Positions 55,774 through 61,167 of a stretch of DNA of 64,000 nt are shown piece by piece (the stretch's first letter is position 1; each line of letters begins with the position of its first letter). The notes under the pieces are model-generated. The model saw only the letters and a program-made list of their open reading frames with translations, was not told where the DNA came from and searched no databases. The translations under genes were made by a program, and so were the position numbers. Origin of the DNA: a virus; IMG/VR virus record IMGVR_UViG_3300017991_000096, positions 15,246 to 79,245 of that record, one strand, 5' to 3'.

Positions 55774-55786
55774 CATCCGCCATTCG

Positions 55787-55813
55787 ACCGGCCCATGCGG
55801 CCGGTTTTCTTTT
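55787..55813 (+). terminator. intrinsic terminator
   Basis: ACCGGCC-CATGC-GGCCGGT followed by TTTCTTTT. Confidence 0.75.
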
Positions 55814-55966
55814 GCCCTGGGCCTGCGCGGAACGCGCACATATGCTTAGGGTAAGCATGGCAAGGCGCCCCATCGGCGCCACCGAAAACGCGCGGAACGC
55901 GCAAACCCCCCTCTATTCCCTGCCCTAGCTGTAGCTACAGCGTAAATAAAATATGTAGGTGACCCC

Positions 55967-55995
55967 TTGACCTCCCATGGTATCCATACTACATT
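55967..55995 (+). promoter_or_regulatory. sigma70-like (probable early) promoter
   Basis: TTGACC-N17-TACATT with upstream AT tract TAAATAAAATAT in a GC-rich genome. Confidence 0.7.
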
Positions 55996-56075
55996 GTATA
56001 TCCCTTCGGGGCGCCTCGCAGGGCGGGGTCGGAAACTCAACCAACCAACAGAGAAAGTACCAAGGAGTAATCATC

Positions 56076-56678
56076 ATGGCCAAGAACACCAAGAAGTCCA
56101 CCGCCAAGTCCACCACCAAGAACGCCGGCAGCAAGAAGTCCACCAAGAAGTCCGCTCCCAAGAAGGTCACCGCGGCCAAGGGCGGTAAGAGCAAGGGCGG
56201 CAAGAGCGGCAAGAAGAAGGCGCCGCCCAAGGCGGGTGAGGCTGCCAAGCAGTTGAGCGGCGAGGCGTTCCGAAAGTGGAACCACGTCGCTGCCATGCAG
56301 GAGGTCTGGCCGAACGCCCAGCGCGGTCACGTCATCAACGTCCCCAGCGCCACGGTCGAGGGCCGCACCGACATCGCGGTTGTCCTCTACCCAAGCAACG
56401 CGGAGTCGGACGGGTCCGCACTCATCATCCGCAACAGCGGAAAGTACAGCGCCCAGAAGTCGGCCAAGCTGGCCGAGCAGTTCTCCAAGCTGGTCGGGAT
56501 GCTGGCCGACCCTGGCGACGACTGCGACGCGCACCAGAGTGAAGCCGGCGACTGGCTCCACTTCATCGACATGGTCGTCCCTCCCGCCGTCCAGCGGGTC
56601 CTCGACAACCAGACGGCGGCACCCGCCAAGAAGTCCAAGGCGAAGGCCAAGGGCAAGCGCGGCAAGAAGGCCGCCTAG
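56076..56678 (+). CDS. protein with histone H1-like K/S/T/A-rich tails at both ends
   Basis: AAGGAG RBS; MAKNTKKSTAKSTTK...KKSAPKKVTAAKGGKSKGGKSGKKK and C-terminal PAKKSKAKAKGKRGKKAA. Confidence 0.7.
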   Translation: MAKNTKKSTAKSTTKNAGSKKSTKKSAPKKVTAAKGGKSKGGKSGKKKAPPKAGEAAKQLSGEAFRKWNHVAAMQEVWPNAQRGHVINVPSATVEGRTDIAVVLYPSNAESDGSALIIRNSGKYSAQKSAKLAEQFSKLVGMLADPGDDCDAHQSEAGDWLHFIDMVVPPAVQRVLDNQTAAPAKKSKAKAKGKRGKKAA

Positions 56679-56745
56679 TCGAAACGCCCCCGCTTCGGCG
56701 GGGGTGTCTACCGGACCCGGCCCCCCGGTACTGATGAGACAGGCC
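56673..56745 (+). ncRNA. type II hammerhead ribozyme (HHR1)
   Basis: Stem II GTC/GAC; GAAA 56681-84; stem III CGCCCCCGC-TTCG-GCGGGGGTG; GUC cleavage triplet 56706-08; stem I TACCGG/CCGGTA; CTGATGA 56731-37. Confidence 0.92.
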
Positions 56746-56762
56746 AGAAAGAGTCACCCACC

Positions 56763-56951
56763 ATGCAAACCAACATCGAAGTCGTCCCCTCCCAAGGCTC
56801 CAACGGTATCCGCTTCATCGCTCTCATCCTCTGCCCCGGTCAGCCCCTCAAGCTGTACCTCGGTCGCAACGGCAAGCCCACCGCGGCCCGTCACCTTGCC
56901 CGAGAGTGGAAAACCGAGCGCGGTGCCAAGACCGCTGTCGCCAGCATCTAA
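56763..56951 (+). CDS. small hypothetical protein
   Basis: 62 aa directly after HHR1; WKTERGAK motif. Confidence 0.55.
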   Translation: MQTNIEVVPSQGSNGIRFIALILCPGQPLKLYLGRNGKPTAARHLAREWKTERGAKTAVASI

Positions 56952-56991
56952 CCCGCAACCTCAACAACCCAAGCACCAAGGAGTGAGAGTC

Positions 56992-57768
56992 ATGTTCAAG
57001 AAAAACGATACGGTCAACTTCAAGCGCAACGCCATCAAGGGCTCCCCGGTCGTGTGCATCGTCCGCCACGTATCCGCCGATGGTAAGACCATCCGCCTTC
57101 GCCCCTACATCGGGTCGGAGTCGGATGCTTTCGTTGTCAATCTCACCCGCAAGGGGTGGGCCATCGGCAGCACCGGCAGCCGGTGCTTCATCACCCCGAC
57201 CGACAGCAGTCCCAAAGACAAATGCGAGAACTGCGGTGGCACCGGCTGCATCACCGCTAGGGTGCGGCGCGTCGAGACGGGCAAGTTCTCCCGCGCCTTC
57301 GAGGCGGTCTGCCCCGTCTGCTGCGGCACTGGGTTCGCCCCCGAGGAGCCCGAGGAGGAGCCCGAGGTCGAGGACATGGGCCCGCTCGATCAGATGGTCC
57401 GCGCTGCCGCAAAGTACCGCCACGGGCACGACTACATGGAGAGCGTGGTCGAGCCTGCCCTGGAGTACATCGCCAGCCAGACCCCGACGCACGACAGGTG
57501 GCGTCACTACTACGCCGAGGTGACGGACGTGCTCGACCGTAACGTCAACTGCCATGGCAAGGGTGCCGCCATCTCCGAACTCACGGAGTGGATCGAGGGC
57601 GAGTGCCGCAAGCGTCGCGCCGCGTACAAGGCCGGTCTAAGCATCAAATGGGACACGCTCAGGAAGCGGGTCCAGACCGTCGTGGAGAACACGGGTCGCA
57701 AGCCCTACAAGCGCAGCCGCCGGTCGCTCGCTGCGTTCTACGCTTCCAACCTTCCCCTTACCCAGTAG
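56992..57768 (+). CDS. hypothetical protein with DnaJ-type zinc finger
   Basis: AAGGAG RBS; CENCGGTG and CPVCCGTG repeats. Confidence 0.65.
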   Translation: MFKKNDTVNFKRNAIKGSPVVCIVRHVSADGKTIRLRPYIGSESDAFVVNLTRKGWAIGSTGSRCFITPTDSSPKDKCENCGGTGCITARVRRVETGKFSRAFEAVCPVCCGTGFAPEEPEEEPEVEDMGPLDQMVRAAAKYRHGHDYMESVVEPALEYIASQTPTHDRWRHYYAEVTDVLDRNVNCHGKGAAISELTEWIEGECRKRRAAYKAGLSIKWDTLRKRVQTVVENTGRKPYKRSRRSLAAFYASNLPLTQ

Positions 57769-57808
57769 CCCCAACCATCAACCCATCGAAAGTAAAGGAC
57801 AAAGAGTC

Positions 57809-59287
57809 ATGCGCATCAACACGAACATCATCGCCCTCACCGCCAACCGCTTCCACGGGTCGGGTATCGACGCCGACTGGACAGTCACGGAAACCGATAG
57901 CCTCACCTGGGAGGTCAGCAACGATTTTCACTGCATGGACGAGAACGGGTACTACTGCGGGTGGCTGCCCTTCACCATCATCCTCGACTCCGAGGGTCGC
58001 GTGGACGAGGTCGAGATCGCTGAGGAGGATGAGGAAACCTTCGGTGACGACATCGACGTGGAGGGGCTCAAGGAGTACCTGGCCGATGGGTGGAACGCCA
58101 TGCTCGACTCCACGGTCGAGGGCCTCTCGGACGACCCCGACAGTTGCGACATCTGGGAGGACGACGACATCACGGTCGAGACTGACCCCGATTTCGACAC
58201 CTGCTACGTCAAGGCGGTCGATCGTCTGCCCACGCCCGAGCCCGACTTCGAGTCCACGGAGGAGTGCTTGCAAGCCATGCTCACAGAGAACACCGGGCGG
58301 CACATGCTCGACAGCGGCGGCGCCTACGGTCGCCACTGGGAGCGCAACCAGGGGGTTGACTTCTCCAAGACCCCCACGGGGCACATCGAGTTCCACCGTC
58401 CCGACGACTGGTACGTGATCGTGTCCATCTATCACTTCCTGGTCAACAACCTCGACTACTGCGGGGAGCTTGACGCCGAGTTCCAGCGCTTCGCCACGAG
58501 CACCGAGTACGCAGACGAGCCGTGGGGCTCATGCGTCCACGACTGGGTCTGGCGCCGCTTCGGTCACAAGGAGGACGCCGCCACTGGGCCCTACGGTGAG
58601 AACCCCATGACCAAGGACGATCCGACGTGGGGCGGGTACACGTACAACGAGGAGAACTCCTTGAGTCAGGATTTCATCTGGGCTCAATGGACCGTGGACG
58701 GTGAGACTTTCATCGCCATCCAGATCCACGGTGGCTGCGACGCTCGCGGTGGCTTCACCCGCCCCCGCATCTTCTCGGACAGCGGCAACAGCGAACTGGG
58801 GTGGCTCGACTGGAACCGGGTCGGCATGGGCTGCGACAAGTGCCGCTGCCACGCCTACGGCGACGGGGGCGGCTGGGAGTGGTACGACGAGGACGGGCAC
58901 AGCCTCGACGTGACGGTGGCCGGCGACGGTGAGGACGATGACCGGGATGAGGAGGACAACGCCCCCGACCCCGCCGACGCGCCGCGTCTCAAGGGCAAGA
59001 AGTGCGCCGTGATCTTCGACGCGGTCACCGAACGCTGCACGGAGGAGGTCTACACGATCGAGCGCGTGTACCCTGCCCGTGGCGGCCTGTGGGTTGACCT
59101 GGACCGCCTCGTGGAGACTGGGGTCCACACGGCGTCGATGACCGTGACGCTGGATCAGGTCCGACTCCTCGAAGGTGAACTCAGCCAGGACGAGGACGGG
59201 CACGGCATCGCCCGGTGGGACGATGAGGCCAAGACCCTCCGGTGCCCGTGCTGCGAGAGCGGGCACATGAGCGCTGGCCCCTTCTAG
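57809..59287 (+). CDS. acidic hypothetical phage protein
   Basis: 492 aa; HMLDSGGAYGRHWERNQ, TYNEENSLSQ, IQIHGGCDARGGFTRP; terminal CPCC. Confidence 0.7.
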   Translation: MRINTNIIALTANRFHGSGIDADWTVTETDSLTWEVSNDFHCMDENGYYCGWLPFTIILDSEGRVDEVEIAEEDEETFGDDIDVEGLKEYLADGWNAMLDSTVEGLSDDPDSCDIWEDDDITVETDPDFDTCYVKAVDRLPTPEPDFESTEECLQAMLTENTGRHMLDSGGAYGRHWERNQGVDFSKTPTGHIEFHRPDDWYVIVSIYHFLVNNLDYCGELDAEFQRFATSTEYADEPWGSCVHDWVWRRFGHKEDAATGPYGENPMTKDDPTWGGYTYNEENSLSQDFIWAQWTVDGETFIAIQIHGGCDARGGFTRPRIFSDSGNSELGWLDWNRVGMGCDKCRCHAYGDGGGWEWYDEDGHSLDVTVAGDGEDDDRDEEDNAPDPADAPRLKGKKCAVIFDAVTERCTEEVYTIERVYPARGGLWVDLDRLVETGVHTASMTVTLDQVRLLEGELSQDEDGHGIARWDDEAKTLRCPCCESGHMSAGPF

Positions 59288-59356
59288 TCGAAACGTCCCC
59301 GCCGAGGCGGGGGCGTCCGTGGGAGGTAGCCTACCCACGCTGAATGAGACAGGCTA
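59287..59356 (+). ncRNA. type II hammerhead ribozyme (HHR2), core variant CUGAAUGA
   Basis: GTC/GAC stem II; GAAA 59290-93; stem III CGTCCCCGC-CGAG-GCGGGGGCG; GUC 59315-17; stem I CGTGGG/CCCACG; loop TAGCCT complementary to 3' tail AGGCTA. Confidence 0.85.
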
Positions 59357-59394
59357 ACCAAACAACCAAGCTAAGGTCCAAGGAGACAAGACAG

Positions 59395-59805
59395 ATGGCA
59401 AACTCAAAAGGTAAGAACCCCCGTGACAAGCAAGGCATCAGCGCTACCAAGTGGTCGGCAGACATGCGGGCCCGCTTCCCGGTCCCCGAAGGCTGCAAGG
59501 TGCTTGTCAGCTTCCCACACGGGCCCGATGGCGGGACGTGGGATCAGAGCACGGTGAACCTCGCCACCTTCTACGCCGAGGAGCGGATCGGCACCTACCA
59601 CTCATGGTCGGAGGCGCTCGCTGCCCTCGAAGCCGTGGACCGGGGTGAGGACCCGCCCAAACCTCGCCCCGCTCGCCGCGGTGCCCAGCATGAGCCCTTG
59701 AAGGCAGTGCTGCTCGCCAAGGCCGACGCGCTCGACGCTGAGGCGAAGCGGTTGATCGACAAGGCCGCCACCATCCGCGACCTTGTGCGAGAGGGGGTGA
59801 TCTGA
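59395..59805 (+). CDS. hypothetical protein
   Basis: AAGGAG RBS after HHR2. Confidence 0.6.
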   Translation: MANSKGKNPRDKQGISATKWSADMRARFPVPEGCKVLVSFPHGPDGGTWDQSTVNLATFYAEERIGTYHSWSEALAALEAVDRGEDPPKPRPARRGAQHEPLKAVLLAKADALDAEAKRLIDKAATIRDLVREGVI

Positions 59806-60002
59806 TGGACACCTACAAGGTCATTCGCTTCTACCAGAACGTCAACAAGTCGCGCCGGACCATCGCACGAGGTCTGACTCTTGAGGAGGCGCAGGAGCAC
59901 TGCTCCGATCCCGAGACGAGTTCTCGGACCTGCACTACCGCGGCAGGCAAGCGACGCACCGCGCAACACGGACCCTGGTTCGACGGATACGAGAAGGAGT
60001 AG
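59805..60002 (+). CDS. small phage protein
   Basis: YKVIRFY...RTI.RGLTLEEAQ.HC.DPETSS...PWFDGY; TGATG coupling. Confidence 0.65.
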   Translation: MDTYKVIRFYQNVNKSRRTIARGLTLEEAQEHCSDPETSSRTCTTAAGKRRTAQHGPWFDGYEKE

Positions 60003-60006
60003 AACG

Positions 60007-60261
60007 ATGCTGCAAGAGTACCAACGCCTCAACTTCACCACCATGCTGCGCGCCGCCGAGGACGGGAACCTCTGCATCATGGAGTGCCTCGACAAGACCA
60101 CCAACGAGGTCGTCGCCGTCGTCTGTGCCGCCGGCTATGACCCCGTCAACGGCGAGGTCGCTATCACCCCCTTCGCCGTGATGGCCGATGATGGGTACGA
60201 GCGCTTCTCACCCCCCAACCCCGATGGCGGGTTCTGCCAGGAGGAGGACGACAATGGGTAA
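60007..60261 (+). CDS. DUF6117-like small protein
   Basis: NF.T.LRAA.DGNL..MEC.D..T.E...V.CA.....G....TPF......YE...PP. Confidence 0.6.
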   Translation: MLQEYQRLNFTTMLRAAEDGNLCIMECLDKTTNEVVAVVCAAGYDPVNGEVAITPFAVMADDGYERFSPPNPDGGFCQEEDDNG

Positions 60262-60802
60262 GAGCTTTCGATGGCTCTCCGGTGATACCAACTGGAGCGA
60301 GCAAGGCGGCCGATGGTTCCGCCGCGTCAGCGAGTACCGCTATCACGTCATGGAACTCATGCCCAAGAGGTTCGTAGGCTTCGCTGGCGGCGACCCCTAC
60401 ACCGTCAACCTCATCATGGTGGACCTGGACGAGCTAGCGACTGTCGGCGCCGCGGCGCACAGCCGAGGATGGTATCTCCAAGGCAGCGGATGGGACGGCA
60501 CGAAGTGTCGCTTCCAGATCTACGATGTGAAGGCACGCACCCTCATCGCCACTGGTGACGCTGCTGTCCGAGCGACCTTGGTTGACGCTATCGCTGATAT
60601 GCCTGCCCCCTACTCGCACCCGATCGCGTCGTGGCGAGGTGAGAACCACACCGCCCTTCGCAGGATGGCACGCGAGCGCAGCGTGGCCGAAGGTGACCGG
60701 GATCCTCCCGCCACTTGGAGGGACAAGGCAGAGCACGACGGCACCCGGTGCCCTGACTGCTCGCAGACGAGGTGCCCACCCGACTGCCCCAGCAACGCAT
60801 AG
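60254..60802 (+). CDS. hypothetical protein
   Basis: GGAGG RBS; Cys-rich C-terminus. Confidence 0.55.
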   Translation: MGKSFRWLSGDTNWSEQGGRWFRRVSEYRYHVMELMPKRFVGFAGGDPYTVNLIMVDLDELATVGAAAHSRGWYLQGSGWDGTKCRFQIYDVKARTLIATGDAAVRATLVDAIADMPAPYSHPIASWRGENHTALRRMARERSVAEGDRDPPATWRDKAEHDGTRCPDCSQTRCPPDCPSNA

Positions 60803-60821
60803 AAGGTCGATACCAACCACG

Positions 60822-60854
60822 AGCCCGCTGGTGACCCCAGCGGGCTTTCTTTTT
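60822..60854 (+). terminator. intrinsic terminator closing the 56-61 kb cassette
   Basis: AGCCCGCTGG-TGACC-CCAGCGGGCT followed by TTCTTTTT. Confidence 0.8.
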
Positions 60855-60983
60855 GGTCCCCTCCACACCTACATCGTCTCACATGAACGGATGTTCAGGG
60901 CCCCAGCGGGGGGCCTGGCAACGGGCCGCGCGGGCCCTACTTCGGGACCGCGTCAAACCGGCCTAGCGCCCACGCTACGGGCC

Positions 60984-61062
60984 AGCGGGGCACGGGCCGC
61001 GGGCACCCTAGCGGGGCACGGGCCGCGGCCTTGTAGGGACGCCGTAGGGACGCCGTAGGGAC
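60984..61062. repeat. 19-bp direct repeat plus 11-bp tandem repeat in non-coding DNA
   Basis: AGCGGGGCACGGGCCGCGG at 60984 and 61010; GTAGGGACGCC x2.7 at 61033-61062. Confidence 0.85.
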
Positions 61063-61139: not shown

Positions 61140-61167
61140 TTGACGGCGTGGTGACGGCGTGTATATG
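61140..61167 (+). promoter_or_regulatory. promoter with tandem operator-like repeats
   Basis: TTGACG -35 box; TGACGGCGTG repeated at 61141 and 61152; TATATG just upstream of the RHH gene. Confidence 0.5.

Follow-up and report, generated by a model that had tools for sequence, protein, structure and literature searches.

A block of eight genes and two hammerhead ribozymes in an uncultured phage

The stretch of DNA analysed here (the window; 64,000 nucleotides, ~63% G+C) comprises bases 15246-79245 of the 79,245-base IMG/VR virus record IMGVR_UViG_3300017991_000096. The record represents a phage of 79 kb that has not been cultured, and sediment and seawater metagenomes of several studies contain nearly identical DNA. 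Our subject is a ~4.9-kb block of eight genes, all on the + strand and likely one transcription unit, in which two type II hammerhead ribozymes, designated HH1 and HH2, lie between genes 1 and 2 and between genes 4 and 5, respectively. We propose, with a probability of roughly 75%, that these two ribozymes cut the operon message into three RNAs.

Gene 1 (56076..56678, +) encodes a protein of 200 amino acids (aa) with a Lys-rich N-terminus and no family assignment. It has AAGGAG upstream of its ATG, its G+C content at third codon positions (GC3) is 0.92, and its TAG stop (56676-56678) overlaps HH1. The middle segment opens with gene 2 (56763..56951, +; 62 aa, without a family, GC3 0.78), followed by gene 3 (56992..57768, +; 258 aa, GC3 0.87), which gave a weak, sub-threshold match to the DnaJ-type CXXCXGXG zinc finger, and by gene 4 (57809..59287, +; 492 aa, GC3 0.89), which belongs to phrog_11344 (unknown function) and whose TAG stop (59285-59287) overlaps HH2. 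Genes 5 to 8, also on the + strand, form the last segment (59395-59805, 59805-60002, 60007-60261, and 60254-60802); the third of them encodes a DUF6117 protein. Searches of Pfam, PHROGs, NCBIfam, and a protein atlas with the eight operon proteins returned only DUF6117, phrog_11344, and the sub-threshold zinc-finger match. In a preliminary description of this DNA the block was called a probable early operon; since none of the eight genes has a known function, that timing is only a guess.

The likely operon start is a sigma-70-like promoter candidate (55967..55995, +) that consists of TTGACC, 17 nt, and TACATT and has an A/T-rich stretch upstream. It sits between gene 1 and an intrinsic-terminator-like hairpin with a T run (55786..55815, +; 8-bp stem, 6 GC, TTCTTTTG tail) that closes the preceding transcription unit, a position that fits a promoter role. 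At the other end of the block, a second intrinsic-terminator-like hairpin with a T run (60821..60856, +; 11-bp stem, 8 GC, TCTTTTT tail) is a good candidate for the operon end.

An Infernal search with Rfam hammerhead models had been suggested in the preliminary description as a check. Our covariance-model scan of the whole window against Rfam (cmscan) returned two + strand matches above the RF02276 (Hammerhead_II) gathering score of 37 bits, both over the full length of the model (1-66/66): HH1 at 56677-56748 (45.8 bits, E 3.4e-6) and HH2 at 59286-59358 (38.6 bits, E 2.6e-4). No further Rfam family scored above its gathering score in the window or in the remainder of the 79,245-base record, and a permissive search of the window at E<=1 added no weak hammerheads or other ribozymes. 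The same scan of 14 control genomes gave no hammerhead match. Both ribozymes lie in the sense orientation, in genuine gaps that separate genes of GC3 0.78-0.92. These gaps, after which the next starts are at 56763 and 59395, are the two largest in the block.

Anatomy, pairing, and catalytic core of HH1 and HH2

The anatomy of the two copies was mapped by hand from the sequence and then confirmed with a purpose-made motif finder. Both copies have the same order of elements: the 5' strand of stem II (GUC), GAA, stem III, a GUC triplet, stem I, the CUGAUGA box, the 3' strand of stem II (GAC), one A, and a tail. In each copy stem II measures 3 bp, stem III 10 bp, and stem I 6 bp with a 10-nt loop; loops cap both stem I and stem III, and stem II opens to the flanks, which is the type II permutation, and the three helices are fully paired (100% paired cells). 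The Rfam matches, the motif finder, and the alignment of the two copies agree with the complete type II order that had been noted in both elements.

In HH1 (+), stem II is formed by 56678-80/56738-40, stem III by 56684-93/56698-707 with a UUCG loop, and stem I by 56709-14/56725-30. Its catalytic core is complete, with GAA at 56681-83, the A56684-U56707 pair (A15.1-U16.1), GUC at 56706-08, and CUGAUGA at 56731-37. In HH2 (+), the corresponding parts are stem II at 59287-89/59348-50, stem III at 59293-302/59307-316 with a CGAG loop, and stem I at 59318-23/59334-39. All core bases are present in this copy too (GAA 59290-92, A59293-U59316, and GUC 59315-17), but its box, CUGAAUGA (59340-47), has one base inserted after A6 (A6a). 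Self-cleavage is predicted after C17 of the GUC triplet, at 56708..56709 (+) in HH1 and at 59317..59318 (+) in HH2. The Rfam alignment and the motif finder both place the cuts there, in line with the sites after 56708 and 59317 that had been predicted before, and the fragments around the predicted cut are 32 nt and 40 nt.

In each copy, loop I also pairs with the 3' tail to form a pseudoknot, a feature that the preliminary description did not mention. It occupies the same place in the 10-nt loop and is at least 4 bp long in both: GGCC/GGCC in HH1 (4 bp; 56719-22/56742-45) and UAGCC/GGCUA in HH2 (5 bp; 59327-31/59352-56). Fast cleavage by type II hammerheads requires this loop I/3'-tail pseudoknot (PMC3088659).

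When the two copies were aligned, 47 of 48 cells were paired, compared with 37-46% when the partners were slid by 1-3 columns. Five pairs differ between the copies on both sides, one in the pseudoknot and four in stem I (out of six), and two stem III pairs are altered on one side, in keeping with the earlier remark that stems I and III diverge between the copies and yet stay paired. These data bear on the possibility that the motifs resemble hammerheads by chance, or are remnants without function, and that the transcript is left uncut. The score of HH2, near the cut-off, would suit such an explanation. On the other side stand the two full-length matches on the same strand (E 3.4e-6 and 2.6e-4), located exactly in the two largest gaps of the operon, the compensatory changes between the copies, and the 14 control genomes without a match. 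Given the scan matches, the compensatory changes, and the empty controls, we consider an explanation by chance look-alikes or dead motifs barely credible. HH1 and HH2 are real type II hammerhead ribozyme motifs in structure, covariation, strand, and position.

Stems III and I were recovered by minimum-free-energy folds. When HH1 was forced into the hammerhead fold in a 141-nt context, its energy, with the pseudoknot left uncounted, came to within 0.3 kcal/mol of the minimum. In the minimum-free-energy fold of HH2, the stop-region UAGUC (59285-59289) pairs with the GGCUA of the tail (59352-59356); this pairing competes with both the pseudoknot and stem II, and no comparable alternative exists in HH1. 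We also observed a 5-bp GC hairpin (GCGGC-AAGAAG-GCCGC, 56659-56674) within the final codons of gene 1; a single base separates it from the TAG, and no counterpart precedes HH2.

Predicted processing of the operon RNA

Both ribozymes share their strand with the genes and fall within what is likely a single transcription unit, so that the locus is most naturally read as encoding an RNA that is processed into three without proteins. After transcription, HH1 and HH2 would each fold as a three-helix hammerhead, with the loop I/3'-tail pseudoknot holding the active shape. Self-cutting after C17 (56708 and 59317) would leave an upstream piece with a 2',3'-cyclic phosphate and a downstream piece with a 5'-OH. 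The expected products, made without help from proteins, would be an RNA for gene 1 (~0.7 kb), one for genes 2-4 (2,609 nt), and one for genes 5-8 (~1.5 kb). Because the type II layout closes stems III and I, each upstream product would retain its stop codon and end in the 10-bp GC-rich stem III hairpin, while each downstream product would begin with a 5'-OH, the stem I hairpin, and the pseudoknot, right before the next ribosome-binding site. A likely consequence is that stability and translation of the three segments would be uncoupled, each having its own rates. Both the cutting in vivo and what it does to the fate of the mRNA are inferred.

RNase E and RNase III cut phage polycistronic mRNAs in intergenic hairpins, for example RNase III in the T7 early region, and the hairpins that remain protect the ends. 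The processing proposed here is similar in that a long transcript would be split at intergenic hairpins into separately stable mRNAs. It differs in that the predicted cut is made by RNA, is independent of host nucleases, and yields ends with a 5'-OH and a 2',3'-cyclic phosphate, whereas the nucleases leave a 5'-phosphate and a 3'-OH.

A different fate of the 2,609-nt RNA between the two cuts would be circularization, either by an RtcB-type ligase of the host or by the reversed hammerhead reaction on a chimeric core, in which the 5' half comes from HH2 and the 3' half from HH1. The predicted ends, a 5'-OH and a 2',3'-cyclic phosphate, are an RtcB substrate, and the chimeric hammerhead is geometrically possible in that stem II (GUC/GAC) and the core are common to both copies. 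However, just 3 bp of stem II would have to join the halves over 2.6 kb, a search of the phage for RtcB or RNA ligase domains found none, and Perreault et al. looked in vain for spliced or circular products of hammerheads clustered in prophages (PMC3088659). We therefore regard a circle as highly improbable.

Several observations weigh against the cutting of the message into three linear RNAs. With regard to HH2, its score exceeds the gathering score by only 1.6 bits, its hammerhead fold is 5 kcal/mol less stable than the minimum (161-nt context, pseudoknot uncounted), and it carries the A6a insertion, a core variant for which low activity has been reported (PMC3088659). With regard to the operon, a promoter scan of the region found 1 site compared with 1.3 in shuffled sequences, which is not above chance. 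The preliminary description had placed HH1 and HH2 between one strong promoter and one terminator; the placement and the terminator at 60821 hold, but the word 'strong' does not suit a site that matches at 9 of 12 positions and is equalled in shuffles. Furthermore, no run containing the locus is recorded as RNA, and megablast of 55900-60900 against cultured phages found no relatives of the operon with which the two junctions might be compared. Finally, the field still describes as undefined what biological purpose hammerheads serve in bacteria and phages (PMC6765202).

The core insertion of HH2

The three points on HH2 listed above raise the question of whether both ribozymes cut efficiently. 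If only HH1 did so, with HH2 slow or decaying via A6a, the operon would in practice be cut once, into gene 1 and genes 2-8. Such an outcome would accord with the CUGAAUGA box and the low activity reported for an insertion after A6, with a score (38.6 bits) that is close to the cut-off of 37, and with the unfavourable fold in context, in which the 5' UAGUC can pair with the GGCUA tail. Nevertheless, every stem of HH2 and its 5-bp pseudoknot are intact. The insertion is also identical in contigs from two other studies, and thus A6a is not an assembly error.

A pattern search of IMG/VR found A6a in ~10 distinct, unrelated viral hammerheads with intact stems, and two of these (L231 and L253) have the same UAGCC/GGCUA pseudoknot as HH2. 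In this search, 28 of the 36 matches to the A6a pattern were set aside as a coding-sequence look-alike without stems. Since A6a, although reported to be slow, recurs with intact stems, HH2 is probably active but would cut more slowly than HH1, and a single effective cut is unlikely.

Stop codons flush with stem II

It had been pointed out in the preliminary description that, in both copies, stem II begins with the G of the upstream TAG. This is indeed the case for the TAG of gene 1 (56676-78) and the TAG of gene 4 (59285-87). For comparison, we searched IMG/VR for type II hammerheads with two patterns of the core, each of which matched at least 120 loci. Among the matches listed, to which all survey counts refer, requiring at least 4 bp in stems I and III and at least 2 bp in stem II and removing near-duplicates left 252 hammerheads at 158 loci. 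An upstream open reading frame (ORF) of at least 60 codons preceded 235 of the 252, and for these the offset of the last base of the stop from the first paired base of stem II was counted. Offset 0 was found in 48 cases, -1 in 38, -2 in 20, -3 in 23, -4 in 13, and +1 in 4. Hence, 146 of the 235 cases have their stop no more than 4 nt from stem II, in a 6-nt span out of a search range of ~260 nt, and in about one third of the 235 the stop includes the conserved A before stem II or the first base of stem II. The concentration of stops in this span means that viral type II hammerheads in general tend to lie flush with a stop codon, and the overlap is not special to this phage. An intergenic gap-length control for the surveyed loci was too crude to use, as small genes were missed.

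One explanation of the overlap is translation gating, in which a ribosome ending the upstream gene would cover and unwind the 5' strand of stem III together with stem II, so that cutting would take place only on a ribosome-free site and would be tied to upstream translation. The shared G of the TAG and stem II in both copies and the clustering of surveyed stops are what such gating would predict, and a terminating ribosome shields ~12-15 nt 3' of the stop, a distance that counts in its favour. However, the next start lies a median of 24 nt past stem II in the survey, which leaves space only for the pseudoknot tail and a ribosome-binding site. Because the module is packed equally tightly on both sides, plain genome compaction predicts the same picture and explains the overlap as well. 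The A before stem II is conserved with or without an adjacent stop (132 of 154 and 65 of 81, respectively), folds of the two copies revealed no alternative 'lock' hairpin involving the stop codon that is conserved in both, and our literature search found no experiment linking translation to cleavage in any hammerhead. The use of TAG twice is unremarkable in a phage where 29 of 67 stops (43%) are TAG, and the choice of this codon was accordingly rejected as a sign of selection. Taken together, these points make gating quite unlikely, and compaction of the genome around two ribozymes that would process the message accounts for the overlap equally well. On general grounds, some interplay with translation is likely, as a terminating ribosome has to unwind stems II and III.

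A more far-reaching idea is that the stop codon is built into viral type II hammerheads so that the ribozyme acts as a protein-free sensor of upstream translation, cutting only RNA free of ribosomes, since terminating ribosomes would melt stems II and III; the slow A6a core of copy 2 would then tune a second, later cut. If so, the ribozyme would set how long each cistron remains joined to its neighbours. We regard this sensor as speculative and very unlikely.

Comparison with known hammerheads

Clustered type II hammerheads flanking genes in prophage operons were described in 2011 in Agrobacterium tumefaciens, Azorhizobium caulinodans, and Clostridium scindens, and the ~2-kb polycistronic RNAs of these three prophage clusters were cleaved in vitro and in E. 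coli (PMC3088659). The present locus shares with them several sense hammerheads in one phage-type operon, the type II form, a pseudoknot of at least 4 bp, a position flanking short blocks of genes of varied or unknown function, and a proposed role in polycistronic RNA processing (Perreault et al., 2011; PMC3088659). Specifically, it has two copies in sense orientation in the intergenic gaps of one phage unit of eight + strand genes. Unlike those clusters, it comes from an uncultured 79-kb phage, contains other genes, and has one A6a copy, and its cleavage is predicted (PMC3088659).

Three type II hammerheads of Desulfovibrio vulgaris cleave in vivo, as detected by cyPhyRNA-seq, and in vitro (PMC8782182). 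They resemble HH1 and HH2 in their phage-like context, in having two close copies on the same strand, and in fragment size (29-32 and 39 nt, against 32 and 40 nt at the present locus); unlike HH1 and HH2, which are known from sequence, they were validated in a cultured bacterium (PMC8782182). Relative to the RF02276 family, both copies match the full model, with a short stem II that follows the conserved A and a tail that forms a pseudoknot. They differ from its consensus in the GUC/GAC stem II, and HH2 differs further in the one extra base of its CUGAUGA box.

Earlier publications cover the motif, its pseudoknot, its clusters in phage operons, and the idea of processing, and it is the phage locus itself that is new. 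The role of hammerheads in bacteria and phages is an open question (PMC6765202), and this locus alone leaves current knowledge unchanged. It is a clean two-copy example in which a canonical core and an A6a core occur within one operon, both flush with a stop codon. As such, it offers a convenient construct for asking whether upstream translation affects cleavage and whether cleavage alters the stability or translation of the separated cistrons.

Flanking sequences and related viral loci

The leaders at 56040-56075, 56952-56991, 57769-57808, and 59359-59394 contain a C/A-rich (CAACAACC-like) stretch before an AAGGAG-type ribosome-binding site, and AGAGTCA, immediately ahead of the ATG or near it, is common to three of these leaders. 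Past the operon terminator is a non-coding stretch of ~330 nt with two perfect 11-nt tandem repeats, GTAGGGACGCC x2.7 (61033-61062) and TGACGGCGTGG x1.9 (61141-61161), the latter of which overlaps a promoter-like TTGACG...TATATG. These repeats could be operator or iteron sites.

The 492-aa protein of gene 4 had no relatives in IMG/VR and only an identical fragment in JGI metagenomes, and a search for relatives of the DUF6117 protein gave no match. By tblastn, only the central domain of the gene 4 protein has homologues, which occur in Erythrobacter, Mycobacterium, and Gordonia phages. The best hit, again to the central domain only, was Erythrobacter phage vB_EliS-L02 (OL955261.1; L254:1168-2977), the only cultured-phage homologue outside actinobacteriophages; in this region the genes are separated by gaps of ~145-200 nt that contain no Rfam match.

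DNA contigs of four runs differ at 12 variable sites, none of which is inside the ribozymes; since ~0.5 would be expected there, this count is uninformative. Short contigs of three runs (X2, X9, and X10) from these metagenomes match only the 3' 46 nt of HH1 (56701-56746), with 5 differences, and then continue into unrelated flanks, so that other phages of the same habitats have sister hammerheads. In one HH1-like short contig, a TGA stop is flush with GUCGAAAC.

The type II hammerhead design is abundant in viral contigs, with at least 120 loci per pattern scan and at least 7 copies at one locus. One viral contig has seven type II hammerheads within 3 kb (L043:8402-11317), and another carries four canonical copies and an A6a copy, five in all, within 1.7 kb (L251:3011-4685). 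On a further, unrelated viral contig, a Twister-P5 ribozyme (RF02684, 48 bits; L231:4934-4993) lies ~650 nt downstream of an A6a-type hammerhead (L231:4226-4286).

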